From Escherichia coli (GTDB taxonomy: Bacteria; Pseudomonadota; Gammaproteobacteria; Enterobacterales; Enterobacteriaceae): a stretch of 64,000 bases of DNA. The stretch lies in NCBI RefSeq assembly GCF_030013595.1, contig NZ_CP122768.1, one strand, 5' to 3'. The notes under the pieces were generated by a model. The model did no database searches, was not told where the DNA came from, and worked only from the letters and a program-made list of their open reading frames with translations. Below are positions 27,326-53,518 of this stretch, piece after piece. Each line of letters starts with the position of its first letter. Positions within the stretch are counted from its first letter, which is position 1. Made by a program: the position numbers and the translations under genes.

Positions 27326-28027
27326 GACAATGCAGATGGTTCAACCATGCTGGATAAACGTTATGTCATCACTAACGGTAATCAGCTGGCGATTCAAAAT
27401 GATTTACTGGAGAGTTTATCAAAAGCGTTAAACCAACCGTGGCCACAACGAATGCAGGAGATGCTCCAGCAAATTTTGCCTCATCGTGGTGCGTTATTAA
27501 CTAATTTTTATCAGGCACATGATTATTTACTGCATGGCGATGATAAATCATTGAACCGTGCCAGTGAATTATTAGGTGAGATTGTTCAATCATCCCCAGA
27601 ATTTACCTACGCGAGAGCAGAAAAAGCATTAGTTGATATCGTGCGCCATTCTCAACATCCTTTAGATGAAAAACAATTAGCAGCACTGAACACAGACATA
27701 GATAACATTGTTACACTACCGGAATTGAATAACCTGTCCATTATATATCAAATAAAAGCGGTCAGTGCTCTGGTAAAAGGTAAAACAGATGAGTCTTACC
27801 AGGCGATAAATACTGGCATTGATCTTGAAATGTCCTGGCTAAATTATGTGTTGCTTGGCAAGGTTTATGAAATGAAGGGGATGAACCGGGAAGCAGCTGA
27901 TGCATATCTCACCGCCTTTAATTTACGCCCAGGGGCAAACACCCTTTACTGGATTGAAAATGGTATATTCCAGACTTCTGTTCCTTATGTTGTACCTTAT
28001 CTCGACAAATTTCTCGCTTCAGAATAA
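27326..28027 (+). pseudogene. cadC: cadC 3' fragment (C-terminal about 233 codons of the ToxR-like activator); 5' half replaced by IS1
   Basis: ORF ends about 365 bp upstream of cadB in the position and orientation of cadC; begins abruptly at the IS1 end. Confidence 0.8.
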
Positions 28028-28392
28028 GTAACTCCCGGGTTGATTTATGCTCGGCAAGATTTGTTGTTGAGTTTTTGTATGTTTCTGTTGGTATAATATG
28101 TTGCGGCAATTTATTTGCCGCATAATTTTTATTACATAAATTTAACCAGAAAATGTCCCACAATCCATTGTAAATATTGAATGTTTATCTTTTCATGATA
28201 TCAACTTGCGATCCTGATGTGTTAATAAAAAACCTCAAGTTCTCACTTACAGAAACTTTTGTGTTATTTCACCTAATCTTTAGGATTAATCCTTTTTTCG
28301 TGAGTATTCTTAGCGCCAGTTTGGTCTGGTCAGGAAATAGTTATACATCATGACCCGGACTCCAAATTCAAAAATGAAATTAGGAGAAGAGC
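28028..28392 (+). promoter_or_regulatory. cadBA promoter/regulatory region (Pcad)
   Basis: Conserved intergenic region between cadC and cadB; individual CadC sites not mapped. Confidence 0.5.
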
Positions 28393-29727
28393 ATGAGTTC
28401 TGCCAAGAAGATCGGGCTATTTGCCTGTACCGGTGTTGTTGCCGGTAATATGATGGGGAGCGGTATTGCATTATTACCTGCGAACCTAGCAAGTATCGGT
28501 GGTATTGCTATCTGGGGTTGGATTATCTCTATTATTGGTGCAATGTCGCTGGCGTATGTATATGCCCGACTGGCAACAAAAAACCCGCAACAAGGTGGCC
28601 CAATTGCTTATGCCGGAGAAATTTCCCCTGCATTTGGTTTTCAGACAGGTGTTCTTTATTACCATGCTAACTGGATTGGTAACCTGGCGATTGGTATTAC
28701 CGCTGTATCTTATCTTTCCACCTTCTTCCCAGTATTAAATGATCCTGTTCCGGCGGGTATCGCCTGTATTGCTATCGTCTGGGTATTTACCTTTGTAAAT
28801 ATGCTCGGCGGTACCTGGGTAAGCCGTTTAACCACTATTGGTCTGGTGCTGGTTCTTATTCCTGTGGTAATGACAGCTATTGTTGGCTGGCATTGGTTTG
28901 ATGCTGCGACTTATGCTGCTAACTGGAATACTGCGGATACCACCGATGGTCATGCGATCATTAAAAGTATTCTGCTCTGCCTGTGGGCCTTCGTGGGTGT
29001 TGAATCCGCAGCTGTAAGTACTGGTATGGTTAAAAACCCGAAACGTACCGTTCCGCTGGCAACCATGCTGGGTACTGGTTTAGCAGGTATTGTTTATATC
29101 GCTGCGACTCAGGTGCTTTCCGGTATGTATCCGTCTTCTGTAATGGCAGCTTCCGGTGCTCCGTTTGCAATCAGTGCTTCAACTATCCTCGGTAACTGGG
29201 CTGCGCCGCTGGTTTCTGCATTCACCGCCTTTGCGTGCCTGACCTCTCTGGGCTCCTGGATGATGTTGGTAGGCCAGGCAGGTGTACGTGCCGCTAACGA
29301 CGGTAACTTCCCGAAAGTTTATGGTGAAGTCGACAGCAACGGTATTCCGAAAAAAGGTCTGCTGCTGGCTGCAGTGAAAATGACTGCCCTGATGATCCTC
29401 ATCACTCTGATGAACTCTGCCGGTGGTAAAGCATCTGACCTGTTCGGTGAACTGACCGGTATCGCAGTACTGCTGACTATGCTGCCGTACTTCTACTCTT
29501 GCGTTGACCTGATTCGTTTTGAAGGCGTTAACATCCGCAACTTTGTCAGCCTGATCTGCTCTGTACTGGGTTGCGTGTTCTGCTTCATCGCGCTGATGGG
29601 CGCAAGCTCCTTCGAGCTGGCAGGTACCTTCATCGTCAGCCTGATTATCCTGATGTTCTACGCTCGCAAAATGCACGAGCGCCAGAGCCACTCAATGGAT
29701 AACCACACAGCGTCTAACGCACATTAA
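28393..29727 (+). CDS. cadB: Lysine:cadaverine antiporter
   Basis: 444-aa APC-family transporter upstream of cadA. Confidence 0.95.
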   Translation: MSSAKKIGLFACTGVVAGNMMGSGIALLPANLASIGGIAIWGWIISIIGAMSLAYVYARLATKNPQQGGPIAYAGEISPAFGFQTGVLYYHANWIGNLAIGITAVSYLSTFFPVLNDPVPAGIACIAIVWVFTFVNMLGGTWVSRLTTIGLVLVLIPVVMTAIVGWHWFDAATYAANWNTADTTDGHAIIKSILLCLWAFVGVESAAVSTGMVKNPKRTVPLATMLGTGLAGIVYIAATQVLSGMYPSSVMAASGAPFAISASTILGNWAAPLVSAFTAFACLTSLGSWMMLVGQAGVRAANDGNFPKVYGEVDSNGIPKKGLLLAAVKMTALMILITLMNSAGGKASDLFGELTGIAVLLTMLPYFYSCVDLIRFEGVNIRNFVSLICSVLGCVFCFIALMGASSFELAGTFIVSLIILMFYARKMHERQSHSMDNHTASNAH

Positions 29728-29806
29728 TTAAAAGTATTTTCCGAGGCTCCTCCTTTCATTTTGTCCCATGTGTTGGGAGGGGCCTTTTTTACCTGGAGAT
29801 ATGACT

Positions 29807-31954
29807 ATGAACGTTATTGCAATATTGAATCACATGGGGGTTTATTTTAAAGAAGAACCCATCCGTGAACTTCATCGCGCGCTTGAACGTCTGAACTTCC
29901 AGATTGTTTACCCGAACGACCGTGACGACTTATTAAAACTGATCGAAAACAATGCGCGTCTGTGCGGCGTTATTTTTGACTGGGATAAATATAATCTCGA
30001 GCTGTGCGAAGAAATTAGCAAAATGAACGAGAACCTGCCGTTGTACGCGTTCGCTAATACGTATTCCACTCTCGATGTAAGCCTGAATGACCTGCGTTTA
30101 CAGATTAGCTTCTTTGAATATGCGCTGGGTGCTGCTGAAGATATTGCTAACAAGATCAAGCAGACCACTGACGAATATATCAACACTATTCTGCCTCCGC
30201 TGACCAAAGCACTGTTTAAATATGTTCGTGAAGGTAAATATACTTTCTGTACTCCTGGTCACATGGGCGGTACTGCATTCCAGAAAAGCCCGGTAGGTAG
30301 CCTGTTCTATGATTTCTTTGGTCCGAACACCATGAAATCTGATATTTCCATTTCAGTATCTGAACTGGGTTCTCTGCTGGATCACAGTGGTCCACACAAA
30401 GAAGCAGAACAGTATATCGCTCGCGTCTTTAACGCAGACCGCAGCTACATGGTGACCAACGGTACTTCCACTGCGAACAAAATTGTTGGTATGTACTCTG
30501 CTCCAGCAGGCAGCACCATTCTGATTGACCGTAACTGCCACAAATCGCTGACCCACCTGATGATGATGAGCGATGTTACGCCAATCTATTTCCGCCCGAC
30601 CCGTAACGCTTACGGTATTCTTGGTGGTATCCCACAGAGTGAATTCCAGCACGCTACCATTGCTAAGCGCGTGAAAGAAACACCAAACGCAACCTGGCCG
30701 GTACATGCTGTAATTACTAACTCTACCTATGATGGTCTGCTGTACAACACCGACTTCATCAAGAAAACACTGGATGTGAAATCCATCCACTTTGACTCCG
30801 CGTGGGTGCCTTACACCAACTTCTCACCGATTTACGAAGGTAAATGCGGTATGAGCGGTGGCCGTGTAGAAGGGAAAGTGATTTACGAAACCCAGTCTAC
30901 TCACAAACTGCTGGCGGCGTTCTCTCAGGCTTCCATGATCCACGTTAAAGGTGACGTAAACGAAGAAACCTTTAACGAAGCCTACATGATGCACACCACC
31001 ACTTCTCCGCACTACGGTATCGTGGCGTCCACTGAAACCGCTGCGGCGATGATGAAAGGCAATGCAGGTAAGCGTCTGATCAACGGTTCCATTGAACGTG
31101 CGATCAAATTCCGTAAAGAGATCAAACGTCTGAGAACGGAATCTGATGGCTGGTTCTTTGATGTATGGCAGCCGGATCATATCGATACGACTGAATGCTG
31201 GCCGCTGCGTTCTGACAGCACCTGGCACGGCTTCAAAAACATCGATAACGAGCACATGTATCTTGACCCGATCAAAGTCACCCTGCTGACTCCGGGGATG
31301 GAAAAAGACGGCACCATGAGCGACTTTGGTATTCCGGCCAGCATCGTGGCGAAATACCTCGACGAACATGGCATCGTTGTTGAGAAAACCGGTCCGTATA
31401 ACCTGCTGTTCCTGTTCAGCATCGGTATCGATAAGACCAAAGCACTGAGCCTGCTGCGTGCTCTGACAGACTTCAAACGTGCGTTCGATCTGAACCTGCG
31501 TGTGAAAAACATGCTGCCGTCTCTGTATCGTGAAGATCCTGAATTCTATGAAAACATGCGTATTCAGGAACTGGCTCAGAATATCCACAAACTGATTGTT
31601 CACCACAATCTGCCGGATCTGATGTATCGCGCATTTGAAGTTCTGCCGACCATGGTAATGACTCCGTATGCTGCGTTCCAGAAAGAGCTGCACGGTATGA
31701 CCGAAGAAGTTTACCTCGACGAAATGGTAGGTCGTATTAACGCCAATATGATCCTTCCGTATCCGCCGGGAGTTCCTCTGGTAATGCCGGGTGAAATGAT
31801 CACCGAAGAAAGCCGTCCGGTTCTGGAGTTCCTGCAGATGCTGTGTGAAATCGGCGCTCACTATCCGGGCTTTGAAACCGATATTCACGGTGCATACCGT
31901 CAGGCTGATGGCCGCTATACCGTTAAGGTATTGAAAGAAGAAAGCAAAAAATAA
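29807..31954 (+). CDS. cadA: Inducible lysine decarboxylase
   Basis: 715 aa from MNVIAILNHMGVYF...; full-length agreement with E. coli CadA as recalled. ORF track start at 29768 is an upstream in-frame extension. Confidence 0.95.
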   Translation: MNVIAILNHMGVYFKEEPIRELHRALERLNFQIVYPNDRDDLLKLIENNARLCGVIFDWDKYNLELCEEISKMNENLPLYAFANTYSTLDVSLNDLRLQISFFEYALGAAEDIANKIKQTTDEYINTILPPLTKALFKYVREGKYTFCTPGHMGGTAFQKSPVGSLFYDFFGPNTMKSDISISVSELGSLLDHSGPHKEAEQYIARVFNADRSYMVTNGTSTANKIVGMYSAPAGSTILIDRNCHKSLTHLMMMSDVTPIYFRPTRNAYGILGGIPQSEFQHATIAKRVKETPNATWPVHAVITNSTYDGLLYNTDFIKKTLDVKSIHFDSAWVPYTNFSPIYEGKCGMSGGRVEGKVIYETQSTHKLLAAFSQASMIHVKGDVNEETFNEAYMMHTTTSPHYGIVASTETAAAMMKGNAGKRLINGSIERAIKFRKEIKRLRTESDGWFFDVWQPDHIDTTECWPLRSDSTWHGFKNIDNEHMYLDPIKVTLLTPGMEKDGTMSDFGIPASIVAKYLDEHGIVVEKTGPYNLLFLFSIGIDKTKALSLLRALTDFKRAFDLNLRVKNMLPSLYREDPEFYENMRIQELAQNIHKLIVHHNLPDLMYRAFEVLPTMVMTPYAAFQKELHGMTEEVYLDEMVGRINANMILPYPPGVPLVMPGEMITEESRPVLEFLQMLCEIGAHYPGFETDIHGAYRQADGRYTVKVLKEESKK

Positions 31955-31967
31955 TTAGCTCGTACAA

Positions 31968-31996
31968 GGGAAGTGGCTTGCCACTTCCCTTTTTTG
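31968..31996 (+). terminator. Rho-independent terminator after cadA
   Basis: gggaagtgg-cttg-ccacttccc hairpin followed by TTTTTTG. Confidence 0.8.
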
Positions 31997-32012
31997 CTCA
32001 TAAGGAGAACAC

Positions 32013-33470
32013 ATGAAAACACCCTCACAGCCGCGCGCGATATACTATATCGTGGCGATCCAAATCTGGGAGTACTTCAGTTTTTACGGCATGCGTGCCT
32101 TACTCATTCTCTATCTCACCCATCAGCTTGGTTTTGATGATAACCATGCCATCAGCCTGTTCAGCGCATATGCTTCTCTGGTTTACGTTACCCCTATTCT
32201 CGGCGGCTGGCTTGCCGACCGCCTGCTCGGCAACCGCACTGCAGTGATTGCCGGCGCGCTGTTAATGACCCTTGGCCATGTGGTGCTGGGCATTGATACA
32301 AATTCAACCTTTAGCCTGTATCTGGCGCTGGCAATCATTATTTGTGGCTACGGTTTATTCAAATCAAACATCAGCTGTTTGCTTGGCGAGCTCTACGACG
32401 AGAACGATCATCGACGTGATGGCGGTTTTTCGCTGCTGTATGCTGCAGGCAATATCGGTTCTATCGCCGCCCCCATCGCCTGCGGCCTGGCTGCTCAGTG
32501 GTATGGATGGCATGTTGGCTTTGCCCTTGCGGGTGGCGGCATGTTTATCGGTTTGTTGATTTTCTTAAGCGGTCATCGTCATTTCCAGTCCACGCGTAGT
32601 ATGGATAAGAAAGCGCTCACTAGCGTCAAATTTGCCTTACCAGTATGGAGCTGGTTAGTGGTGATGCTCTGTTTAGCCCCAGTATTTTTTACCCTGCTGC
32701 TGGAGAACGACTGGTCCGGATATTTGCTGGCGATCGTTTGCCTCATTGCAGCACAAATCATTGCCCGCATGATGATCAAATTCCCCGAACACCGCCGTGC
32801 TCTTTGGCAAATTGTATTGTTGATGTTTGTCGGGACGTTGTTCTGGGTACTGGCACAACAGGGCGGCAGTACCATCAGCTTGTTTATCGATCGCTTTGTG
32901 AATCGTCAGGCATTCAATATTGAAGTACCTACAGCACTATTCCAGTCGGTGAATGCCATTGCGGTGATGCTCGCTGGGGTTGTTCTGGCCTGGCTGGCGT
33001 CGCCAGAAAGCCGCGGCAATTCAGCATTGCGCGTCTGGCTGAAGTTTGCCTTTGGCTTACTGCTGATGGCTTGTGGCTTTATGTTGCTGGCATTTGATGC
33101 CCGACATGCAGCGGCTGGCGGTCAAGCGTCAATGGGCGTGATGGTATCCGGGCTGGCGCTAATGGGCTTTGCTGAACTCTTTATTGACCCGGTGGCGATT
33201 GCGCAAATCACGCGTCTGAAAATGTCTGGCGTATTAACCGGTATTTATATGCTGGCAACAGGCGCGGTCGCCAACTGGCTGGCAGGCGTCGTGGCACAGC
33301 AGACGACAGAGTCGCAAATTAGCGGTATGGCAATTGCCGCTTACCAGCGATTCTTTTCTCAGATGGGAGAGTGGACGTTGGCTTGTGTCGCGATCATCGT
33401 GGTATTGGCCTTTGCTACCCGTTTTCTGTTTAGCACGCCGACGAATATGATACAGGAGAGCAACGATTAA
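32013..33470 (+). CDS. dtpC: Dipeptide/tripeptide:H+ permease (POT family)
   Basis: 485-aa POT-family ORF in the conserved position between cadA and lysU. Confidence 0.9.
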
Positions 33471-33706
33471 CTGTCGTAAAAACAATTGGTTATGAATAAA
33501 TTAACTTTCAGTTTATCACACTAGCAAATCGAGATTAATAAGTCATTTAAACCATTTTTATGGTTATTTATTAGTGATATCAACTTGAGGTAAGCGTTAG
33601 TTTCGATAAGATAAACTGAGTTATTAATAGTCGAGGCAGATAATACAGTGTACCGATCTGTCTCTTTATCTACGCTAAATTGAAAGCTGGATTTAGAGGA
33701 ACCAAA

Positions 33707-35224
33707 ATGTCTGAACGAGAAACACGGGGAGCCAATGAGGCTATTGATTTTAACGATGAACTGAGAAATCGCCGCGAAAAACTGGCGGCACTACGTCAGC
33801 AAGGTGTGGCGTTTCCCAATGATTTTCGCCGCGACCATACCTCTGACCAGTTGCACGAAGAGTTTGATGCGAAGGATAACCAGGAACTGGAATCCTTAAA
33901 CATTGAAGTCTCGGTTGCTGGCCGAATGATGACCCGTCGTATCATGGGGAAAGCCTCCTTTGTAACGTTGCAGGATGTCGGTGGCCGTATTCAACTGTAC
34001 GTTGCAAGAGATAGCCTGCCAGAAGGTGTTTATAACGATCAGTTTAAAAAATGGGATCTGGGTGACATTATCGGTGCCCGCGGTACGCTGTTTAAGACGC
34101 AAACGGGTGAGCTTTCCATTCACTGTACTGAGCTGCGCCTGCTGACTAAAGCACTACGTCCTTTACCAGATAAATTCCATGGTCTGCAGGATCAGGAAGT
34201 CCGTTATCGTCAACGTTATCTGGACCTCATCGCTAACGATAAATCCCGTCAAACGTTTGTTGTCCGTTCAAAAATTCTGGCCGCTATCCGTCAGTTCATG
34301 GTCGCGCGCGGCTTTATGGAAGTAGAAACCCCGATGATGCAGGTAATTCCAGGTGGGGCATCTGCTCGCCCGTTTATTACCCATCATAACGCTCTGGATT
34401 TAGATATGTACCTGCGTATCGCGCCAGAGCTGTATCTGAAACGTCTGGTTGTAGGCGGTTTTGAACGGGTATTCGAAATCAACCGTAACTTCCGTAATGA
34501 AGGTATTTCTGTTCGCCATAATCCTGAGTTCACAATGATGGAACTCTACATGGCGTATGCGGATTACCACGATTTGATTGAACTGACAGAGTCACTGTTC
34601 CGCACCCTGGCACAAGAGGTTCTGGGTACCACTAAAGTCACTTATGGCGAGCATGTGTTTGATTTCGGCAAACCGTTTGAAAAACTCACCATGCGCGAAG
34701 CAATCAAAAAATATCGTCCAGAAACCGATATGGCCGACCTGGATAATTTTGATGCCGCTAAAGCATTAGCTGAATCTATTGGTATTACGGTAGAGAAAAG
34801 CTGGGGGCTGGGACGTATTGTCACGGAGATCTTTGATGAAGTGGCAGAAGCACATCTGATTCAGCCAACCTTTATTACGGAATATCCCGCAGAAGTGTCA
34901 CCGCTGGCGCGCCGTAATGATGTTAACCCGGAAATCACCGACCGATTTGAATTCTTCATCGGTGGTCGTGAAATCGGTAATGGTTTTAGCGAATTAAACG
35001 ACGCAGAAGATCAGGCTGAACGTTTCCAGGAACAGGTTAACGCTAAAGCTGCAGGTGACGACGAAGCCATGTTCTATGACGAAGATTACGTGACTGCGCT
35101 GGAATATGGTTTGCCACCAACCGCTGGTCTGGGTATTGGTATCGACCGAATGATTATGCTGTTTACAAACAGTCATACTATTCGCGACGTTATTCTCTTC
35201 CCGGCGATGCGCCCACAGAAATAA
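33707..35224 (+). CDS. lysU: Lysyl-tRNA synthetase, inducible isoform
   Basis: 505 aa from MSERETRG...; class II aaRS motifs; identification as lysU (not lysS) by genomic context. Confidence 0.92.
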
Positions 35225-35235
35225 TTTTCACTTTA

Positions 35236-35269
35236 ATGAACGAAGCAGTCAGGCGACTGCTTCGTTCAT
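35236..35269 (+). terminator. Hairpin after lysU
   Basis: atgaacgaagcagtc-aggc-gactgcttcgttcat inverted repeat. Confidence 0.55.
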
Positions 35270-35343
35270 CATTCCGCAAATCCAGTTTTGAGGAGAGACG
35301 CTTCGTTTCACGATAACCAGCGGGTCCACTCAACTACAGCTCC

Positions 35344-35516
35344 TAAAAGAGAGAAAAAAGTAATGCCACAGGCAGACTCATTGGCCAGGTTATTCCTACC
35401 AGGAATGCACTAAGTAAACGAATATGTGTTTTCTCATGTGAGATAAACCAGATAATGACAAAGGATATGTTCACACCAATCACATAAAAAATTAATATTT
35501 TAGAGAATAGTGCCAT
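35344..35516 (-). pseudogene. ghoT: ghoT (type V toxin) with apparent 1-bp deletion causing frameshift after codon 18
   Basis: ATG at 35516 gives MALFSKILIFYVIGVNIS then shifts; the +1 frame continues VIIWFISHEKTHIRLLSAFLVGITWPMSLPVALLFSLF-stop, which restores the recalled 57-aa GhoT. Deletion is in an A-run near 35459-35461. Confidence 0.6.
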
Positions 35517-35543
35517 TTTTTATGTTCTTCTTATCCTTCCTGG

Positions 35544-35840
35544 CTACTTGTAAAACTGACGGAAATAGTCATCAACGGTCATAATGTTGAGGTCAAAGTC
35601 AATATCCGGTAAGTCTAAGCATTTAAGCCTGATTAAATCTTCGATTTCACTTGCGGCTAACGATGTCGTTATTGCGAAGGAGTTTTCATTCAATTGTCGT
35701 GGTATCCCATATTCATCAGCCACGATAGAGGAGAAATTCATATCATACATCAATGATCTTAACCTTAAGAACACTGAGGAATAAGATGATGGATAATCAA
35801 AAGAAACAACATAAGTATTGAACTTGTTTTTACCTTCCAT
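35544..35840 (-). CDS. ghoS: GhoS antitoxin (endoribonuclease) of the GhoT/GhoS type V toxin-antitoxin system
   Basis: 98-aa ORF upstream of ghoT in the same orientation. Confidence 0.85.
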   Translation of the reverse strand: MEGKNKFNTYVVSFDYPSSYSSVFLRLRSLMYDMNFSSIVADEYGIPRQLNENSFAITTSLAASEIEDLIRLKCLDLPDIDFDLNIMTVDDYFRQFYK

Positions 35841-36066
35841 AATATGACTCCTATCAATATTGAACGCTCTGGGGACGCAAAACTTATTAACCCCGATTGA
35901 TGATTCTCATATAGGAGATATTCTTTTTTTTGCTCAGTAAAGGGGATGACTTGGGACAAAAAAACGCGCTCTCTGCCCATTCTTTGTGCATCCCCCTACC
36001 CTTCAGATGCTCACCTGCATCACACCGCGGAGAGCATGAAAAATATTGTGACTCTGTACTCTCCCA

Positions 36067-36339: not shown

Positions 36340-36350
36340 TTTACCCTCGC

Positions 36351-41020: not shown

Positions 41021-41029
41021 ATGCACTTT

Positions 41030-43549: not shown

Positions 43550-44083
43550 AAAATTTGCAAATCCAAAGCATTACATTAAGACATGGCCTGATAAACATAT
43601 CGCATCAGGCCATTTTCGTTAGCTATTGTCCACGTCAGGCTTTCACATCACTCACTGCACCGACCGGAATATCAGCATGAACAGGCTCGGGCGGTACTTT
43701 GCGATATTTATCCAGCAGATGGATCTGGATCCTGCGCAGCGTGCACCATTGAGGCGATAGAAACGGAAGTAGAGAATCAGCGTTACCATGAAAAACAGAG
43801 TCGGTAGAGCAATCATAATAAACTGCATACCTAATAGGGCTTGCGTAGACTGTTCAACATTCGGTACATAGCCAATCATCCCTAACACAACCGCAATGAA
43901 AAAAGCCGCAAAGGCTGAACCGCCCTTCACCACCATAGTCTGCACGGAGTAAGCGATGCTTTCACAGCGTACGTGCAGTTTATATTCACCGTAATCAACG
44001 GTATCTGCCACCATGATGACCTGTAATACCCAGAAAAGCGCCGTTCCCACATTCAGCAAGATACCCGCAATCACAATGAGGAC

Positions 44084-44092
44084 GACGTTGTG
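44084..44092. repeat. Target-site duplication (gacgttgtg), left copy
   Basis: Identical 9 bp directly flank both ends of IS1 copy 2. Confidence 0.9.
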
Positions 44093-44107
44093 GGTAATGA
44101 CTCCAAC

Positions 44108-44611
44108 TTACTGATAGTGTTTTATGTTCAGATAATGCCCGATGACCTTGTCATGCAGCTCCACCGATTTTGAGAACGACAGTGACTTCCGTCCCAGCCT
44201 TGCCAGATGTTGTCTCAGATTCAGGTTATGCCGCTCAATGCGCTGAGTATAACGCTTGCTGATAACGTGCAGCTTTCCCTTCAGGCGTGATTCATACAGC
44301 GGCCAGCCATCCGTCATCCATACCACGACCTCAAAGGCCGACAGCAGGCTCAGAAGACGCTCCAGTGTGGCCAGAGTGCGTTCACCGAAGACGTGCGCCA
44401 CAACCGTCCTCCGCATCCTGTCATACGCGTAAAACAGCCAGCGCTGACGTGATTTAGCACCGACGTAGCCCCACTGTTCGTCCATTTCAGCGCAGACAAT
44501 CACATCACTGCCCGGTTGTATGCGCGAGGTTACCGACTGCGGCCTGAGTTTTTTAAGTGGCGGAAAATCGTGTTGAGGCCAACGCCAATAATGCGTGCAC
44601 TGGCGCGACAT
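44108..44611 (-). CDS. insB: IS1 transposase InsB reading frame
   Basis: Identical translation to copy 1. Confidence 0.9.
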
Positions 44612-44805
44612 CCGACGCCATTCATGGCCATATCAATGATTTTCTGGTGCGTACCGGGCTGAGAGGCGGCGTAAGTGAACTGTAGTTGCCATGTTTTACG
44701 GCAGTGAGAGCAGAGATAGCGCTGATGTCCGGCGGTGCTTTTGCCGTTACGCACCACCCCGTCAGTAGCTGAACAGGAGGGACAGCTGATAGAAACAGAA
44801 GCCAC
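44530..44805 (-). CDS. insA: IS1 InsA
   Basis: Identical translation to copy 1. Confidence 0.9.
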
Positions 44806-44860
44806 TGGAGCACCTCAAAAACACCATCATACACTAAATCAGTAAGTTGGCAGCATCACC

Positions 44861-44869
44861 GACGTTGTG
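44861..44869. repeat. Target-site duplication (gacgttgtg), right copy
   Basis: See left copy. Confidence 0.9.
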
Positions 44870-45934
44870 ATAGCTCATTAATGCCATTAACAGGAGAACA
44901 CCACAGCTTAACACCGGAAGAATAGATGCTCCGGCCCATAAAATGCGTCGGGATAATGATTTAACTAAGCGTGGGAAGAATACTAACGTCACCAGATTAG
45001 CAGCTCCCGCATACGACAGATAATAGGGGAACAAATCCGCATCACCGATAACATATGAGAAATAATAGATAGCAAAGCCGGTAATAATATTGCTGGCTAC
45101 ATTATAAGCAAGAGCCATACCCAAGAGGCATGAAAGCTGATCGTTTTTATAAATTAGCGCAACGATGGCTTTAAGTGTCAGATGGCTTCCTTCAGCAGAC
45201 GGTTGATTGTCTGACGAAAAGACTTCATGCACATTGCGCAGAGTGATGATGGTTGAAACAATAAAAAAGGCGATCAGTACCAGAGTGAACATCTGAAAGC
45301 CAAATCCCCGATCGCCACCGCCGACATAATTAACAAATGGTAGCGTCACACCTGCCGTAACAAAGCCTGCCAGACTGGCAAAAAAACGCGGATAAGGAAC
45401 CAGTTGTTCGCGCTCACGTTTATCGAGCGTTATGGTTGGAACCAGCGACCAGAAGGGAATATCCATAATGGTGTAAGTCATGCCCCAGAGGATGTAGGTC
45501 ACGCAAACAAAGACAATCTGAGTAGTACCTTCAAACAGATGCGCACTAAAGAGGAGAAATAAGATTACAGAGTTTGCCAACGTACCGATCAGGATCCAGG
45601 GTTTGAACTTACCCCATCGCGATCGCGTAGCATTTACAATCCATCCCATAATCGGATCGTTAATAGCATCCCAGATCCTCGCCACCAGAAACAAAGTACC
45701 GACCAAACCCACAGACAGCCCGACGACATCGGTGTAGTAATACATGAGGTACATATACACAATGCCGATCGCAAAATCCTTCCCGAACGCTCCAAATCCA
45801 TAACTGAGTTTTGTAGTCATTGAAATGCTCATAGGGTATCGGGTCGTTGTTACCAACGCCCGCCTTCTGTTATTGGTATCGTCAGAGGTGTGCGCCGGAA
45901 TAAATCCCCCGGCGCAGTAGCGTTTAGTCGCGTT

Positions 45935-47290
45935 TTAACGGTGCAACCAGCCTGGCAGCCAGTCGCCGTGGGCGGCAATCAGGTCGTCAACAAGAGCATA
46001 TATTTCGTCAATGCCCAGCACGGCGGCAGTATGCGGGTCCATCATCGCGGCGTGGTAAACACGGTCGCGGTTTTCCGTAAGAATGGCTTCGGTCAGCAGC
46101 GTCTGTACGTTGATGTTGGTTTGCATCAGAGCGGCCAGATGCGAAGGTAGCGTACCGACTTTGGTCGGCTGAATGCCATTAGCATCAACCAGACAGGCTA
46201 CTTCCACGCAACATCCTTGTGGCAGGTTATCAATCAAATCATCGTTACGGACGTTGCCGTAAATCACACTCGGCTCGCCAGTCCAGATAGCGTTCATGAT
46301 TGTGCTGGCATATTCCCGTGACGGTTTAATATCAATCCGGGAGGCGTTTTTATACTCCTCCAGCTCTTTATGCCAGTTCGCCAGCTGCTCGACGCAGCGT
46401 TTCGGGTACTCATCCAGCGGTACTTTATAACGCTCAATCAAATCCTCACGACCTGGCTTAATAAACCACGGTGTGTACTCAGCAAAATGTTCTGACGATT
46501 CCGTGACGAAGTAGCCCAGCTTTTTGAACATTTCGTAGCGCACAATATTCTGGCAGCGAGTATTGCCATGAATATTCGGCTTCGGTGCCTGCCCTGCTTC
46601 ATAAGCCGCCAGCAGTTCCGGGTAGAGATTCACGTAACTGCCGTCGGCGGTTTTGCGCTCCAGTTCCAGGTAAAACGCCATATGGTTGATACCTGCACAA
46701 CGGTAACGCAGCGTAGACGGGTCGATATTGAGGTCACGCGCCAGCTCTTCCGCCGTTCCCTGCACCGAATGGCACAGCCCTACCTGTTTGATATGCGGAT
46801 AGCGGGCATACATCGCCCAGGTATTCATCGCCATTGGGTTAACATAGTTGAGCATGGTGGCATCGGGGCAGACTTCCGTCATGTCCTCGCAAATTTGCCA
46901 CAGATGCGGAATGGTACGTAGCGCGCGCATAATACCGCCCGGCCCCAACGTATCGGCAATGGTTTGTTCCAGACCATGCCGCTTACAGACCTCGAAATCA
47001 GTCACCGTGCAAGGTTCATAACCGCCAATCTGAAATGCCACCACGACAAAATCAGCATCCTGTAAGGCTTCTTTCTGTTGGGTGTGGCAGGTGATTTTGC
47101 CGCTGGCCCCTGCTGAATCCATCAGCTTACGCACCACAATGTGCGACTCTTCCAGGCGGGTGGGATCAATGTCCATCAGGGCAATATGCGCCGTTTTCAG
47201 CGCCTCGCGATGGAACACATCACCAAGAATATTTTTAACGAAAATCGTCGAACCAGCGCCGATAAATGTAATTTTGGGTGCAGACATCAT
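45935..47290 (-). CDS. melA: Alpha-galactosidase (NAD/Mn-dependent, GH4)
   Basis: 451-aa ORF with N-terminal Rossmann motif; upstream of melB in the same orientation. Confidence 0.95.
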   Translation of the reverse strand: MMSAPKITFIGAGSTIFVKNILGDVFHREALKTAHIALMDIDPTRLEESHIVVRKLMDSAGASGKITCHTQQKEALQDADFVVVAFQIGGYEPCTVTDFEVCKRHGLEQTIADTLGPGGIMRALRTIPHLWQICEDMTEVCPDATMLNYVNPMAMNTWAMYARYPHIKQVGLCHSVQGTAEELARDLNIDPSTLRYRCAGINHMAFYLELERKTADGSYVNLYPELLAAYEAGQAPKPNIHGNTRCQNIVRYEMFKKLGYFVTESSEHFAEYTPWFIKPGREDLIERYKVPLDEYPKRCVEQLANWHKELEEYKNASRIDIKPSREYASTIMNAIWTGEPSVIYGNVRNDDLIDNLPQGCCVEVACLVDANGIQPTKVGTLPSHLAALMQTNINVQTLLTEAILTENRDRVYHAAMMDPHTAAVLGIDEIYALVDDLIAAHGDWLPGWLHR

Positions 47291-47572
47291 GCAGATCTCC
47301 TAGCTTGCTTGAATAACTTCATCATGGCAGGCGAATCTGCAGAAAACCTCCGGCTTCCAGGTTGAGCATTCCCATAAACTCAGATCCTACGTGAAGCAGC
47401 AGTAAATCTGAGTTTATGGGAATAAATTACCTGAAAAGCAGAGTTTTCGGCCTCAGAATGCTCGGACGGTCCCCTCGCCTCTCTGGGAAGAGAGTGAAAA
47501 CCGTGCTCCCACTCGCAGTCATCCTCCCTCACTCCTGCCATAATTCTGATATTCCAGGAAAGAGAGCCATCC
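47291..47572. promoter_or_regulatory. melR-melAB divergent control region
   Basis: Intergenic region between divergent melA and melR; sites not individually mapped. Confidence 0.5.
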
Positions 47573-48481
47573 ATGAATAAAGATACGTTTATGTGCAGTA
47601 GCGACGAAAAACAGACCCGCAGCCCGCTATCGCTGTATTCGGAATACCAGCGGATGGAGATTGAGTTTCGCGCACCGCATATCATGCCCACCAGCCACTG
47701 GCATGGTCAGGTCGAAGTGAATGTGCCTTTCGATGGCGATGTGGAATACCTGATCAACAATGAAAAAGTGAATATCAATCAGGGTCATATCACGCTGTTC
47801 TGGGCCTGTACACCGCACCAACTAACAGATACCGGAACCTGTCAGAGCATGGCGATTTTTAATCTGCCGATGCATCTGTTTCTCTCCTGGCCGCTGGATA
47901 AAGACCTGATTAACCACGTCACTCACGGTATGGTGATCAAATCACTGGCGACACAGCAACTTAGCCCGTTTGAAGTGCGCCGCTGGCAGCAGGAATTGAA
48001 CAGTCCGAACGAGCAAATTCGCCAGCTCGCCATTGATGAAATTGGCCTGATGCTCAAGCGATTTAGCCTCTCTGGCTGGGAACCGATTCTGGTCAATAAA
48101 ACCTCGCGCACACACAAAAACAGCGTCTCGCGCCATGCGCAATTTTATGTCAGCCAGATGCTGGGCTTTATTGCCGAAAACTATGATCAGGCGCTGACCA
48201 TCAACGATGTGGCTGAGCACGTCAAACTTAACGCCAACTATGCAATGGGGATATTCCAGCGGGTCATGCAATTGACGATGAAACAGTACATTACCGCGAT
48301 GCGCATCAACCACGTTCGCGCGTTACTGAGCGATACCGATAAAAGTATTCTCGATATTGCCCTGACGGCAGGCTTTCGTTCAAGTAGTCGTTTTTACAGC
48401 ACGTTCGGCAAATATGTCGGCATGTCGCCGCAACAATACCGCAAACTTAGCCAACAGCGCCGCCAGACGTTTCCCGGCTAA
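47573..48481 (+). CDS. melR: AraC-family melibiose operon activator
   Basis: 302-aa ORF with C-terminal AraC-type HTH. Confidence 0.93.
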   Translation: MNKDTFMCSSDEKQTRSPLSLYSEYQRMEIEFRAPHIMPTSHWHGQVEVNVPFDGDVEYLINNEKVNINQGHITLFWACTPHQLTDTGTCQSMAIFNLPMHLFLSWPLDKDLINHVTHGMVIKSLATQQLSPFEVRRWQQELNSPNEQIRQLAIDEIGLMLKRFSLSGWEPILVNKTSRTHKNSVSRHAQFYVSQMLGFIAENYDQALTINDVAEHVKLNANYAMGIFQRVMQLTMKQYITAMRINHVRALLSDTDKSILDIALTAGFRSSSRFYSTFGKYVGMSPQQYRKLSQQRRQTFPG

Positions 48482-48679
48482 AGACGATATCAGTATCAGC
48501 CAAAAAAATAGTTTAGCCGTCGATAATAAGCAGTGAAAATAATTTAAAATAATCACATAACATATTGTTTATAAAAACAAATATTTCAAAAATGTTTGTT
48601 TTTCACGCGCTTTACAGCCCGAAAAGGCCGGAAGATACTTGCCCGCACCGAAGATTCCTTCATAACCGGGTAAGCAATG

Positions 48680-50947
48680 ATGAAAGTATTAATTGTTGAA
48701 AGCGAGTTTCTCCATCAAGACACCTGGGTCGGTAACGCCGTTGAGCGTCTGGCAGATGCTTTAAGCCAGCAAAATGTTACCGTGATTAAATCCACCTCCT
48801 TTGATGATGGTTTTGCCATTCTCTCTTCAAACGAAGCCATTGACTGCCTGATGTTCAGCTATCAAATGGAACATCCGGACGAACATCAAAACGTCAGACA
48901 ATTGATCGGTAAGCTTCATGAGCGCCAACAAAACGTGCCGGTCTTCCTGTTGGGCGATCGGGAAAAAGCCCTCGCCGCAATGGATCGCGACCTGCTGGAG
49001 CTTGTCGATGAATTCGCCTGGATTCTGGAAGATACCGCCGACTTTATCGCCGGACGCGCCGTTGCCGCGATGACCCGCTACCGCCAGCAACTGTTGCCGC
49101 CACTGTTCAGCGCGCTGATGAAATATAGCGACATCCATGAATATTCCTGGGCAGCACCAGGCCACCAGGGTGGCGTTGGTTTTACCAAAACACCCGCCGG
49201 ACGTTTCTACCATGACTACTATGGTGAAAACCTGTTCCGCACCGACATGGGCATCGAACGAACTTCCCTCGGTTCTTTGCTTGACCATACTGGCGCATTT
49301 GGCGAAAGCGAAAAATATGCTGCACGCGTATTTGGTGCCGATCGCTCCTGGTCGGTAGTCGTCGGTACTTCCGGCTCTAACCGCACCATCATGCAGGCTT
49401 GCATGACCGATAACGATGTCGTGGTCGTTGACCGTAACTGCCATAAATCCATCGAACAAGGCTTGATGCTGACAGGCGCGAAACCGGTCTACATGGTGCC
49501 AAGCCGCAACCGCTACGGCATTATCGGGCCAATCTATCCGCAGGAAATGCAACCTGAAACCTTGCAGAAGAAAATCAGTGAAAGCCCGCTGAATAAAGAC
49601 AAAGCCGGGCAAAAACCGTCTTACTGCGTGGTGACCAACTGCACCTATGACGGCGTGTGTTATAACGCTAAAGAAGCGCAGGATCTGCTGGAAAAAACCT
49701 CCGATCGTCTGCACTTTGACGAAGCCTGGTACGGCTATGCACGTTTCAACCCGATCTATGCCGATCACTATGCCATGCGCGGCGAACCTGGCGATCACAA
49801 CGGTCCTACCGTTTTCGCCACCCACTCCACCCACAAACTGCTGAATGCGCTGTCACAGGCCTCTTATATTCATGTACGTGAAGGTCGTGGGGCGATTAAC
49901 TTCTCCCGCTTCAACCAGGCCTACATGATGCATGCCACCACCTCCCCGCTGTATGCCATCTGCGCATCCAACGACGTGGCGGTGTCGATGATGGACGGCA
50001 ACAGCGGCCTGTCACTGACCCAGGAAGTGATCGACGAAGCGGTTGATTTCCGTCAGGCGATGGCGCGGCTGTATAAAGAGTTCACCGCTGACGGTAGCTG
50101 GTTCTTCAAACCGTGGAACAAAGAAGTCGTCACCGACCCACAAACCGGCAAAACCTATGACTTTGCTGACGCACCAACCAAACTGCTGACCACCGTTCAG
50201 GACTGCTGGGTCATGCATCCGGGCGAAAGCTGGCACGGCTTCAAAGATATTCCGGATAACTGGAGTATGCTCGACCCGATTAAAGTCAGCATCCTTGCTC
50301 CGGGAATGGGTGAAGATGGTGAACTGGAAGAAACCGGTGTTCCGGCGGCGCTGGTCACTGCCTGGCTTGGTCGCCACGGCATTGTGCCTACCCGCACCAC
50401 TGACTTCCAAATTATGTTCCTGTTCTCTATGGGCGTAACCCGTGGGAAATGGGGGACTCTGGTTAACACCCTTTGCTCCTTCAAACGCCACTATGACGCC
50501 AACACACCGCTGGCGCAGGTGATGCCGGAACTTGTTGAACAATATCCTGACACTTACGCGAACATGGGGATTCACGATCTGGGTGACACCATGTTTGCCT
50601 GGCTGAAAGAAAACAACCCTGGCGCACGGTTGAACGAAGCCTATTCCGGCCTGCCGGTGGCGGAAATCACCCCGCGTGAAGCGTACAACGCGATTGTCGA
50701 CAACAATGTCGAACTGGTATCCATTGAAAATCTGCCAGGACGCATCGCGGCAAACTCAGTTATCCCGTATCCGCCAGGAATCCCGATGCTGCTGTCTGGT
50801 GAAAACTTCGGCGATAAAAACAGTCCGCAAGTAAGTTATTTACGCTCGCTGCAATCCTGGGACCATCATTTCCCTGGATTTGAACACGAAACAGAAGGGA
50901 CAGAAATTATTGACGGTATTTACCACGTTATGTGTGTGAAAGCGTAA
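48680..50947 (+). CDS. adiA: Biodegradative (acid-inducible) arginine decarboxylase
   Basis: 755-aa PLP-dependent decarboxylase paralogous to CadA; ORF track starts one Met codon earlier (48677). Confidence 0.95.
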   Translation: MKVLIVESEFLHQDTWVGNAVERLADALSQQNVTVIKSTSFDDGFAILSSNEAIDCLMFSYQMEHPDEHQNVRQLIGKLHERQQNVPVFLLGDREKALAAMDRDLLELVDEFAWILEDTADFIAGRAVAAMTRYRQQLLPPLFSALMKYSDIHEYSWAAPGHQGGVGFTKTPAGRFYHDYYGENLFRTDMGIERTSLGSLLDHTGAFGESEKYAARVFGADRSWSVVVGTSGSNRTIMQACMTDNDVVVVDRNCHKSIEQGLMLTGAKPVYMVPSRNRYGIIGPIYPQEMQPETLQKKISESPLNKDKAGQKPSYCVVTNCTYDGVCYNAKEAQDLLEKTSDRLHFDEAWYGYARFNPIYADHYAMRGEPGDHNGPTVFATHSTHKLLNALSQASYIHVREGRGAINFSRFNQAYMMHATTSPLYAICASNDVAVSMMDGNSGLSLTQEVIDEAVDFRQAMARLYKEFTADGSWFFKPWNKEVVTDPQTGKTYDFADAPTKLLTTVQDCWVMHPGESWHGFKDIPDNWSMLDPIKVSILAPGMGEDGELEETGVPAALVTAWLGRHGIVPTRTTDFQIMFLFSMGVTRGKWGTLVNTLCSFKRHYDANTPLAQVMPELVEQYPDTYANMGIHDLGDTMFAWLKENNPGARLNEAYSGLPVAEITPREAYNAIVDNNVELVSIENLPGRIAANSVIPYPPGIPMLLSGENFGDKNSPQVSYLRSLQSWDHHFPGFEHETEGTEIIDGIYHVMCVKA

Positions 50948-51064
50948 CCACTATTCCGCTGAAGGCGTAATTGTTAAATAACATTACGCCGCCTGGCTTG
51001 AGGCCTTTTAAGTATGGCAACGTTTTCATAAAAATTGCTGCAAACAAAAAATGTCATGCTTTTT

Positions 51065-51091
51065 GCGCGGTCCCACCCCGCGCTTTTTTTT
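51065..51091 (+). terminator. Rho-independent terminator after adiA
   Basis: gcgcgg-tcccacc-ccgcgc hairpin followed by T8. Confidence 0.8.
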
Positions 51092-51282
51092 GCCTGTTAT
51101 TTATCCTTTTTTTAGCCTGTAAAAAAATATGTACATGAGAAATTACTATAAAAATTTGTAATATTAGTAAAACTCGTTATTTTTATGCATGTTTATATTC
51201 ATCATACAATTATATAACCATTTCCCGGTATCGCTTTGCTTTAGCGAGAACTGGTCTTTTATTCGCACTCAGGAGTACATGT

Positions 51283-52044
51283 ATGAGGATTTGCAGCGAC
51301 CAACCTTGTATTGTTTTATTGACTGAAAAAGATGTCTGGATAAGGGTGAATGGGAAAGAACCTATTAGCCTTAAAGCTAACCATATGGCGTTATTAAATT
51401 GTGAAAATAATATTATCGACGTCTCCTCTCTTAATAACACTTTGGTTGCTCATATTAGTCACGACATCATCAAAGATTACCTCCGGTTTCTGAATAAAGA
51501 TCTCTCGCAAATACCAGTATGGCAACGTAGCGCTACGCCCATCCTCACTCTGCCATGCCTGACGCCAGACGTCTTTCGCGTTGCCGCGCAACACAGCATG
51601 ATGCCCGCTGAAACTGAGTCAGAAAAGGAACGAACACGTGCATTATTATTCACTGTGCTATCCCGTTTTCTCGACAGTAAAAAATTCCTTTCACTAATGA
51701 TGTATATGTTACGTAATTGTGTAAGTGACAGCGTTTATCAAATTATTGAAAGCGATATCCACAAAGACTGGAATCTTAGTATGGTAGCCAGTTGTTTATG
51801 TCTTAGCCCGAGTCTGTTAAAGAAAAAGCTGAAAAGCGAAAACACCAGTTATAGCCAAATAATCACCACCTGCCGCATGCGTTATGCCGTAAATGAATTA
51901 ATGATGGACGGTAAAAATATCTCTCAGGTATCACAGTCCTGCGGCTACAACAGTACGTCGTACTTTATTTCTGTCTTTAAAGACTTCTACGGTATGACGC
52001 CTCTGCATTATGTTAGTCAGCACAGAGAACGCACTGTCGCCTGA
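51283..52044 (+). CDS. adiY: AraC-family regulator of the adi system
   Basis: 253-aa ORF with C-terminal AraC HTH, between adiA and adiC. Confidence 0.9.
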   Translation: MRICSDQPCIVLLTEKDVWIRVNGKEPISLKANHMALLNCENNIIDVSSLNNTLVAHISHDIIKDYLRFLNKDLSQIPVWQRSATPILTLPCLTPDVFRVAAQHSMMPAETESEKERTRALLFTVLSRFLDSKKFLSLMMYMLRNCVSDSVYQIIESDIHKDWNLSMVASCLCLSPSLLKKKLKSENTSYSQIITTCRMRYAVNELMMDGKNISQVSQSCGYNSTSYFISVFKDFYGMTPLHYVSQHRERTVA

Positions 52045-52180
52045 TTTTTAACCTTAACGAAGAGCTATATTAATAACGGCATCAGCGATAACCTGGTCGA
52101 TAATAATTCAACTATCGAATGCAGGCGTATGATATGACGTAATTTATTGTCACGAAGCTCGCCTTCGCAGGAGTTTAATT

Positions 52181-53518
52181 ATGTCTTCGGATGCTGATGC
52201 TCACAAAGTGGGCTTAATCCCCGTCACCCTGATGGTGTCGGGGAATATTATGGGGTCAGGTGTTTTTCTGTTACCTGCAAACCTGGCCTCCACTGGCGGG
52301 ATTGCCATTTATGGATGGTTGGTGACGATTATCGGTGCGCTGGGGCTCTCGATGGTATACGCCAAAATGTCGTTCCTCGACCCAAGTCCTGGTGGTTCTT
52401 ACGCTTACGCCCGCCGCTGCTTTGGCCCGTTTCTCGGTTATCAAACCAACGTCCTCTATTGGCTGGCCTGCTGGATCGGCAATATCGCCATGGTGGTCAT
52501 TGGCGTAGGTTATTTAAGTTACTTCTTCCCGATTCTGAAAGATCCATTGGTATTAACCATCACCTGCGTCGTGGTGCTGTGGATCTTCGTCCTGCTGAAT
52601 ATTGTCGGTCCGAAAATGATCACCCGCGTGCAGGCCGTTGCCACCGTGCTGGCGCTGATCCCCATCGTCGGGATTGCCGTATTTGGCTGGTTCTGGTTCC
52701 GTGGTGAAACCTATATGGCGGCATGGAACGTCAGCGGCCTGGGCACCTTCGGCGCGATTCAAAGTACCCTTAACGTTACGCTGTGGTCGTTCATCGGTGT
52801 GGAAAGTGCCTCCGTTGCCGCAGGTGTGGTGAAAAACCCGAAACGCAACGTCCCTATCGCCACCATTGGTGGGGTATTGATTGCCGCCGTTTGCTATGTG
52901 CTCTCCACCACCGCGATTATGGGGATGATCCCTAATGCCGCACTGCGCGTTTCTGCCTCGCCATTCGGTGATGCCGCACGGATGGCGTTGGGTGACACCG
53001 CCGGGGCCATTGTTTCCTTCTGCGCAGCTGCGGGCTGCTTAGGTTCACTGGGCGGCTGGACATTGCTGGCGGGTCAAACGGCGAAAGCCGCTGCCGATGA
53101 CGGACTGTTCCCACCAATTTTTGCCCGTGTTAATAAAGCGGGTACACCAGTGGCGGGGCTGATTATCGTCGGTATTTTGATGACCATCTTCCAGCTCAGC
53201 AGCATTTCACCAAACGCGACCAAAGAGTTCGGTCTGGTTTCTTCCGTCTCGGTCATCTTTACACTGGTGCCATATCTTTACACCTGTGCGGCGTTACTGC
53301 TGCTCGGCCACGGTCACTTTGGTAAAGCACGCCCGGCATATCTGGCAGTTACTACCATTGCCTTCCTCTACTGCATCTGGGCCGTGGTGGGGTCCGGGGC
53401 GAAAGAGGTTATGTGGTCATTTGTCACCCTGATGGTCATCACCGCCATGTATGCGCTGAATTACAACCGGCTGCATAAAAACCCGTATCCCTTAGATGCA
53501 CCAATAAGCAAAGATTAA
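52181..53518 (+). CDS. adiC: Arginine:agmatine antiporter
   Basis: 445-aa APC-family transporter, paralogous to CadB. Confidence 0.95.

Follow-up and report, generated by a model that had tools for sequence, protein, structure and literature searches.

In Shigella, cadA has reportedly been lost through a 'black hole' or antivirulence process, described in work attributed to Maurelli in 1998 and Day in 2001 and summarised in PMC3739510. In EIEC, inactivation of cadC with an intact cadBA is a documented convergent route to the cadaverine-negative state (PMC5723341, PMC4156367). Casalino et al. 2003, as far as summarised in passages of these two articles, described HN280, 4608 and 53638 as cadC-silenced examples; the same passages mention an IS1 in cadC of EIEC strain 6.81 and name IS elements among the causes of EIEC silencing (PMC5723341, PMC4156367). 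In EIEC strains whose sole cad defect lies in cadC, plasmid-borne cadC brought cadaverine production back (PMC4156367). A comparable lesion was reported for STEC O117:K1:H7, where a large fragment with aerobactin genes is inserted in cadC together with a 90-bp 5' deletion (PMC3739510). Here we analysed a 64-kb stretch of E. coli DNA, referred to as the window, and aligned its cad and adi genes one by one to E. coli K-12 MG1655 (blastn for cadC; translations). Taken as a whole, the locus is probably best explained by a recent IS1-associated deletion running into cadC, which should leave cadBA silent and leaves adi unaffected. The cadC event is a new instance of a well-known phenomenon and involves no new mechanism.

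The initial annotation stated that the lysine system lacks its activator, and this was borne out. By blastn against K-12 cadC only nt 838-1539 are left (27326-28027, plus strand), corresponding to aa 280-512, the periplasmic sensor part only. The promoter, the wHTH DNA-binding domain, the linker and the transmembrane helix are deleted, and alignment to K-12 MG1655 revealed no cadC 5' sequence anywhere in the 64-kb window. The surviving ORF of 226 aa carries CadC_C1 (PF18500) alone, whereas intact CadC has Trans_reg_C (PF00486) as well; with PF00486 absent, the combination of wHTH, transmembrane helix and periplasmic sensor that marks the CadC of a Cad module is not present. The remnant begins at the first base past an intact IS1 of 768 bp (26558-27325, minus strand), which has insA/insB on the minus strand and terminal inverted repeats that can be read directly. 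Its flanks, AATAACTG and GACAATGCA, are not a duplication, so that the element lacks a target-site duplication. On the left it adjoins rbsK, a ribokinase-like gene in the pheU island (25647-26557, minus strand) that is without its first 10 nt, start codon included: the match to the island of O141:H4 P13-6 ends at window position 26557 and rbsK of that strain is 10 nt longer. Up to this point (1-26557) the window and the P13-6 island differ by 2 mismatches in 26.5 kb. In P13-6 the order continues from the island and rbsK over deoR, Ag43 and CP4-like genes to an int remnant and cadC, and relative to this collinear genome about 21.2 kb are absent from the window. The IS1 at the joint is whole, a target duplication is lacking and the missing segment can be read from a collinear genome, which together are the marks of an IS1-mediated adjacent deletion. 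A simple-insertion intermediate of the cadC IS1 was looked for and not found. We propose that a recent IS1-associated deletion extended from the start of the pheU-island ribokinase gene to cadC nt 837, with a single IS1 remaining where the two ends met.

The structural genes of the lysine system are unharmed. The lysine:cadaverine antiporter gene cadB (28393-29727, plus strand, 444 aa) and the inducible lysine decarboxylase gene cadA (29807-31954, plus strand, 715 aa) are both intact, as expected of a Cad module, and show no amino acid differences from K-12; the 13 nucleotide differences found in each of them are synonymous throughout, and the PLP-binding lysine of the S-T-H-K motif in CadA is at position 367. 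The near-clonal relative HCP5S3_I2, which has an intact cadC and an intact melB, differs at only 7 positions in the 16,418 nt that lie on the right side of the first IS1. Its cadC is identical to the remnant over 702 of 702 nt. Its cadBA is identical over 3562 of 3562 nt, and the cadC lesion is therefore very recent. The word 'decay', which had been applied to the lysine system, is accordingly too strong, as cadC alone was damaged, by one very recent event, and cadBA is pristine. The Pcad region comprises 365 nt compared with 364 in K-12, with 11 differences. Within it, the 17-mer core of the CadC operator Cad1 (28171-28187, plus strand; sequence and position, -144 to -128, after PMC5430869) reads TAAATATTGAATGTTTA instead of K-12 TAAACATTAAATGTTTA; of these two changes, C>T at 28175 is clone-specific when compared with K-12 and HCP5S3_I2.

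The arginine system begins 16.7 kb further on (distance between the stop codon of cadA and the start of adiA), which matches the 17 kb given before. Exact alignment agreed with the earlier description of adiA-adiY-adiC as intact together with both terminators, and the inactivating adiA or adiC mutations named as its refutation were absent: in ungapped alignments to K-12 none of the three genes has internal stops, frameshifts or indels, and starts and stops are normal. The arginine decarboxylase gene adiA (48680-50947, plus strand) encodes T305N, which is lineage-specific, and V663I, a common polymorphism, relative to K-12; the PLP-binding lysine of its S-T-H-K motif is at position 386, and exactly this protein was found in 61 contigs. 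The AraC-type activator gene adiY (51283-52044, plus strand) carries the common allele V136L, and the product of the arginine:agmatine antiporter gene adiC (52181-53518, plus strand) equals that of K-12. The adiA terminator hairpin GCGCGG-N7-CCGCGC (51065-51083, followed by T8 to 51091, plus strand) is conserved relative to K-12, with an 11-bp insertion on its 3' side that is common to the lineage. Between adiC and eptA lies a bidirectional terminator-like hairpin with a 13-bp stem (53543-53572) in a spacer identical to K-12. The adi promoter region has 4 SNPs relative to K-12, identical in the relatives. Thus, the genes are full-length and their regulatory regions and terminators are kept. 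The Gad system, ldcC, lysP, hns, cysB and rpoS lie outside the 64-kb window, so that the contrast drawn earlier with a general erosion of acid resistance covers cad and adi only.

From the gene content we would expect the following phenotype. Since the CadC remnant is only part of the periplasmic sensor, no CadC able to bind the Cad1/Cad2 operator sites should be made, so that the intact cadBA would stay silent, H-NS-repressed and uninducible. The cell would be lysine-decarboxylase negative, form no cadaverine and lose lysine-dependent acid tolerance. Arginine-dependent acid resistance should work because the lesion has touched neither the adi genes nor their promoter regions and terminators. 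Similar results were described for a cadC::Tn10 mutant, in which lysine-dependent survival was 0.001% compared with 7.64%, while arginine-dependent survival was kept (24.24% compared with 24.50%), also without H-NS (PMC2984483). Adi expression may even rise, because CadC dampens it: with extra CadC the fluorescence of AdiC:mCherry fell four-fold, and the activation of Cad and that of Adi exclude each other (PMC8989999). Interference of CadC with Adi in Shigella and EIEC is likewise attributed to Casalino 2010 in a passage of PMC4156367.

What brought the deletion about is a separate question. A neutral origin, to which we give nearly even chances, would be a burst of IS1 activity after the gain of an IS-bearing island, in which an adjacent deletion happened to run into cadC, the first core gene beside the pheU site; adi would have been spared only for want of any insertion there. 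Island DNA makes up about 21 kb of the deleted stretch, and cadC just 837 nt. Moreover, a second IS1 (44093-44860, minus strand) is inserted in melB, 17 kb from the first, in the same orientation and identical to it in 768 of 768 positions. This is a simple insertion with the 9-bp duplication GACGTTGTG (44084-44092 and 44861-44869), which separates a 5' fragment (44861-45832, minus strand; aligned to K-12) from a 3' fragment (43635-44092, minus strand). The latter carries a 1-nt deletion at melB nt 1313 (about window position 43743), a frameshift, so that melB is disrupted twice. Relative to the nearest relative, three disruptive events (cadC, the melB IS1 and the melB frameshift) thus stand beside only 7 SNPs, and cadBA shows no sign of drift. 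In a survey of 5,426 complete E. coli genomes partial truncations were commoner in cadC (53) than in cadA (8), as expected for a gene at an island edge. However, neutrality leaves unexplained the 216 genomes in which cadA is entirely missing, at least 45 of which retain some cadC, as well as the excess of cad over adi loss in the species and the convergent silencing of cad that is on record for invasive lineages.

These latter observations speak for pathoadaptive (antivirulence) selection, which we regard as possible but rather doubtful for this clone. The clone would gain from making no cadaverine, as do Shigella, EIEC and some STEC, and the loss of cadC would have been favoured for silencing cadBA while it spares or even boosts arginine-dependent resistance. 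With gross loss defined as no match of >=80% coverage, 224 of the surveyed genomes lacked cadC and 224 cadA, compared with 25 for adiY and 20 for adiA; gross cad loss is therefore about ten-fold commoner than adi loss (odds ratios about 9-12), in counts that ignore kinship and are not phylogenetically independent. Some cadC persists in at least 45 genomes without any cadA match, so that the locus was lost in several ways. EH2252 (12 bp from the present junction), CD09 and Evo1 carry independent insertions of IS1 in cadC; independent convergent cad lesions, the pattern expected of pathoadaptive loss, are thus found both among cadC::IS1 alleles and in the 5,426-genome counts without phylogenetic correction. 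Furthermore, cadC is the usual target of convergent silencing in EIEC (PMC5723341), and STEC O117:H7 shows the same (PMC3739510). The clone-specific SNP in the Cad1 core points in this direction as well, the chance for 1 of 7 SNPs to fall in the 17-mer being about 0.7% in a post-hoc calculation, and the junction is common to several isolates, so that the clone persists.

Against selection, no virulence genes or pathotype determinants are visible in the 64-kb window. The relatives are porcine or faecal, the closest one being from pigs, and the first IS1 has 100% identity with an IS1 variant seen mainly in porcine E. coli. With two disrupted genes (cadC and melB) among about 29 to the right of the first IS1, the chance of at least one cad hit and no adi hit is about 0.18; the asymmetry of cad and adi is not beyond chance in this single genome but is real species-wide. 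In addition, melB took two hits over the same brief period of evolution without such a rationale, and cad may just be more dispensable than adi. The earlier proposal of a targeted removal of cadaverine production therefore holds in part: the documented EIEC route and the species-wide asymmetry fit it, but selection is not deducible from one genome. 'Targeted' is overstated, because the lesion is part of an approximately 21-kb deletion from the adjacent pheU island and is accompanied by a second IS1 in melB. General IS1 activity beside an integration hot spot explains the lesion equally well as selection does.

A further, improbable reading is a Shigella-like, IS1-driven burst of gene loss in a non-invasive, probably pig-associated clone. 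The cad circuit would have been hit twice, in cadC and in the Cad1 core, the silencing would be adaptive and coupled to a stronger expression of Adi once CadC no longer interferes, and the direct IS1 pair would be poised to excise cadBA, a 'black hole' in formation.

It is very unlikely that cadBA is expressed without CadC and the strain lysine-decarboxylase positive, either by read-through from IS1 or because an altered Cad1 region weakens H-NS silencing. Although neither cadBA nor the cadB-cadA spacer is damaged, and Pcad is mostly intact and carries the clone-specific SNP, the IS1 transposase promoter is directed away from cadC and our scan found no plus-strand promoter-like site leaving the first IS1. 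A terminator-like hairpin 3' of the cadC remnant (28102-28122, plus strand), detected in the scan between the remnant and Pcad, would block read-through to cadB. The Cad1 SNP raises the AT content of the site and should thereby help H-NS to bind rather than hinder it, and lysine-dependent resistance is abolished by cadC::Tn10 also when hns is mutated (PMC2984483).

Instead of a deletion, an inversion between IS1 copies could have placed the 5' half of cadC elsewhere in the genome; within 64 kb the two are indistinguishable, and cadC would be split all the same. The junction itself is clonal: at contig ends of five independent assemblies or samples the IS1-cadC' junction matches base for base, with 27-56 nt of IS1 followed by exactly cadC nt 838, and is therefore no assembly artefact of the window. 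A misassembly hiding an intact cadC is thus hardly credible, despite the classic misjoin setting of a repeated, identical IS1 inside the window, as the truncated ribokinase product (296 aa) also lies at a contig end of the separate assembly GCA_048156045.1 and the window is devoid of any cadC 5' sequence.

The recent IS1-associated deletion that we favour has consequences for typing. Isolates of the clone should be lysine-decarboxylase negative and, because melB is doubly inactivated, maybe melibiose negative. They could be misread as Shigella/EIEC in biochemical or cadA-based schemes, because cadA is present yet should be silent. For evolution, the locus is a dated snapshot of the first cad-silencing step, with a relative carrying an intact cadC only 7 SNPs away in 16 kb. 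The clone and this near-identical relative form a clean natural pair for the effect of cadC loss on Adi expression or fitness.

Compared with known systems, the locus resembles Shigella in that an IS-driven cad rearrangement is predicted to end cadaverine production while neither the arginine system nor the remainder of the region is the target. In Shigella, however, the lesion is in cadA itself, by deletion, frameshift or IS disruption and often together with large flanking deletions, whereas cadA and cadB are pristine here. The two direct IS1 copies flanking cadC'-...-melB' could yield a Shigella-type deletion later, which is so far absent. EH2252 (LEE-positive), CD09 and Evo1 also have an IS1 in cadC and keep cadBA, but these are simple insertions with both cadC halves present. 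In EH2252 the element is flanked by the target duplication GGTTCAACC; these IS1 variants differ from the present one, the EH2252 joint being just 95% identical. Like STEC O117:K1:H7, our clone combines a cadC lesion with a retained cadA and a (here predicted) lysine-decarboxylase-negative state outside the EIEC/Shigella group, though clone and mechanism are different. In cadC-silenced EIEC the defect is a simple insertion or a promoter defect, unlike the present IS1-associated deletion of about 21 kb, by which cadC nt 838 was joined to a gene of the pheU island; also unlike EIEC, the relatives and the IS1 variant of the present clone are porcine, and enteroinvasiveness is not seen in the window genes. 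Nevertheless, the locus shares with cadC-silenced EIEC a lysine-decarboxylase-negative state, predicted here, that arises solely via CadC loss, with the region collinear with K-12 and with an intact cadBA, which in EIEC is functional on complementation with cadC.

All K-12 MG1655 genes of the region were extracted and aligned to the window. This gene-by-gene comparison showed the initial annotation and its coordinates to be accurate, and it bore out that the lysine system lacks its activator: the 5' half of cadC is absent and only nt 838-1539 are kept, at 27326-28027. The base at 27326 directly follows an intact 768-bp IS1 (26558-27325) whose terminal repeats are legible in the sequence. The remnant codes for aa 280-512, a portion of the periplasmic sensor, and a 226-aa ORF inside it contains Pfam CadC_C1 only, whereas intact CadC has the Trans_reg_C DNA-binding domain too. 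No target-site duplication was found in the flanks of this IS1, and it is bordered on the left by a ribokinase-like gene without the first 10 nt. In the O141:H4 reference P13-6 the island is collinear with that of the window, but beyond rbsK come deoR, an Ag43 adhesin gene and CP4-type toxin-antitoxin genes before an integrase remnant and an intact cadC close the stretch. Thus, ~21.2 kb are missing from the window and a single IS1 lies at the joint, as is characteristic of adjacent deletions mediated by IS1. Judged from 64 kb, an inversion between two IS1 copies may have occurred in place of a deletion, with cadC split in both cases. No record was found of CadC aa 1-282 with IS1 read-through, the predicted product of a simple insertion; this search is uninformative, since truncated products at contig ends are seldom called. 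We consider the mechanism clear, namely removal of the cadC 5' half by an IS1-associated deletion.

The left part of the window (1-26557) belongs to a genomic island inserted at tRNA-Phe (pheU), of which it is the right portion; it carries fecE, an aryl-polyene-like lipid cluster and a cluster for sugar utilisation with LacI, PTS, epimerase, fucP and rbsK genes. It is followed by cadC'-cadBA, dtpC, lysU, ghoST, dcuSR, dcuB, fumB, yjdF and melBA/melR and then, further rightwards, by adiA-adiY-adiC, eptA-basRS, proP and crfC. The island segment differs from that of the porcine P13-6 by 2 mismatches in 26.5 kb (99.99% identity), whereas the backbone right of IS1 reaches only ~99.0-99.3%, and the pheU site of the nearest backbone relative is empty. 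This indicates that the island was gained recently by horizontal transfer and that the border of the two histories is the IS1.

In the closest complete genome, HCP5S3_I2 from pig faeces, cadC and melB are both intact and the pheU site is empty. Right of IS1, this genome and the window are distinguished by only 7 of 16,418 positions, none of them in the 3' part of cadC (702 nt) or in cadBA (3562 nt), so the truncation of cadC is very young and decay of cadBA has not begun. Neither exact IS1 junction occurs in any of the 5,426 complete RefSeq E. coli genomes; the matches come from draft assemblies only. Five independent assemblies terminate in 27-56 nt of IS1 joined to exactly cadC nt 838, and in a further one the truncated ribokinase lies at the end of a contig. 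Therefore, the junction is real and marks a small clone.

The second IS1 (44093-44860) lies in melB (43635-45832), is identical to the first in 768/768 positions and in orientation, and is flanked by a 9-bp duplication, GACGTTGTG. As melB also carries a separate 1-nt deletion at nt 1313 (~43743), it is inactivated twice; melA and melR are intact, and melibiose transport is predicted to be defective. One sister contig (34.8 kb) has sufficient length to continue past this site, suggesting that melB was hit by its IS1 later than cadC was truncated. Three disruptions fall within only 7 SNPs of divergence, so IS1 activity and the loss of genes in this region are not limited to cad. Moreover, the direct, 100% identical IS1 pair flanks 16.8 kb (cadC'-cadBA-dtpC-lysU-ghoST-yjdIJ-dcuSR-dcuB-fumB-yjdF-melB'), a segment that shows the layout of a putative composite transposon. 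Recombination between the two copies would delete cadBA outright, as in the 'black hole' of Shigella.

Both cadB (28393-29727) and cadA (29807-31954) are full length and encode the K-12 proteins, with 13 nucleotide differences each, all synonymous. One of the seven clone-specific SNPs, 28175 C>T, sits in the 17-bp quasi-palindromic core of the CadC-binding site Cad1 as defined in PMC5430869 (28171-28187; TAAATATTGAATGTTTA in the window, TAAACATTAAATGTTTA in K-12). All sister contigs carry it and the near-clonal relative whose cadC is intact does not, so that it may represent early drift or a second hit to the cad circuit; the chance of a clone-specific SNP landing in this core is ~0.7%, for an observation made post hoc. 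In one sister isolate with the same truncation (contig of SRR30668404), the sole difference in 3.5 kb of cadBA is the non-synonymous cadA V334A, equivalent to window position 30807, which is anecdotal, yet what relaxed selection would look like.

CadC without its DNA-binding and membrane parts would not activate Pcad. A scan of the window sequence found no promoter-like site reading from IS1 toward cadB, and a hairpin is located between the two. With cadC::Tn10, acid survival that depends on lysine was abolished and that on arginine was kept, even when hns was mutated as well (PMC2984483), and EIEC strains with cadC as the only defect regained cadaverine synthesis once cadC was supplied (PMC4156367). 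The strain is therefore predicted to be lysine-decarboxylase negative, to form no cadaverine and to retain Adi, possibly at an enhanced level. CadC has been described to dampen Adi, as an AdiC reporter was four-fold lower with extra CadC and activation of Cad and Adi was mutually exclusive (PMC8989999); for Shigella and EIEC, PMC4156367 cites Casalino 2010 for such interference.

The arginine system (48680-53518) is fully intact, as had been proposed. adiA (T305N, V663I), adiY (V136L) and adiC (no changes) align to K-12 without gaps and with normal starts and stops, and the exact alignment revealed no inactivating mutation in adiA or adiC. Of these substitutions, V663I and V136L occur commonly; T305N is specific to the lineage and falls in a polar stretch (SESPL-N-KDKAGQ) at a large sequence distance from the PLP lysine, K386. 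Both terminators are present as terminator-like hairpins, 3' of adiA (51065-51083 plus T8) and 3' of adiC (53543-53572). Just downstream of the former, ~170 nt upstream of adiY, an 11-bp insertion relative to K-12 and E21 (CCTTTTTTTAG, 51105-51115) is common to all relatives with the same adi allele.

The initial annotation had read this asymmetry as targeted removal of cadaverine production, which is partly supported: a bias against cad is seen across the species, and several points count against taking this case for a targeted one. Counting as gross loss a megablast coverage <80%, by which IS insertions, nonsense mutations and frameshifts escape and for which genomes are not phylogenetically independent, cadC is mostly missing in 224 of 5,426 complete genomes (171 no hit, 53 partial) and cadA likewise in 224 (216 no hit, 8 partial), versus 25 for adiY and 20 for adiA. 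In at least 45 genomes cadA is gone and some cadC is left. However, within this genome the pattern of cad hit and adi spared has p ~0.18, and cadC, into which the deletion extended out of the island, is the first core gene next to an integration hot spot. The ratio of partial truncations, 53:8 for cadC and cadA, is as this location predicts. Besides, melB took two hits without a comparable rationale, and the IS1 variant and the relatives are porcine. That conservation is lower on the cad side than on the adi side is partly explained by variable DNA inserted downstream of cad: in some genomes sharing the DtpC allele of the window (L013 and L017, 14542-21458), Peptidase_S6 serine-protease autotransporter genes and an AraC-type regulator replace the yjdI-dcuS side.

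A Shigella origin, suspected from the damaged cad locus and the presence of IS1, was dropped since exact matches to AdiA, YjdF, the truncated ribokinase and the CadC fragment all belong to E. coli records, and STEC O117:H7 was ruled out as source lineage by its different cadC lesion with an aerobactin-bearing insert. LEE-positive EH2252 (L004, 11368-12105) has an independent cadC IS1 insertion 12 bp from window position 27326; this distance, its own target duplication (GGTTCAACC) and a different IS1 variant exclude the same event, and the proximity may reflect that IS1 prefers this part of cadC as a target. In E. coli GCA_949767205.1 (L021, 4478-6016) cadC is broken into two ORFs (124 aa and 326 aa) with cadBA kept; as no IS is involved, this is one more independent cadC lesion, by point or frameshift mutation. 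Independent cadC::IS1 alleles are known in other E. coli, and convergent silencing of cad, with cadC as the usual target, has been described (PMC5723341, PMC4156367, PMC3739510), both in favour of a bias against cad. The cadC lesion of the window is a new allele within this well-known class of event.
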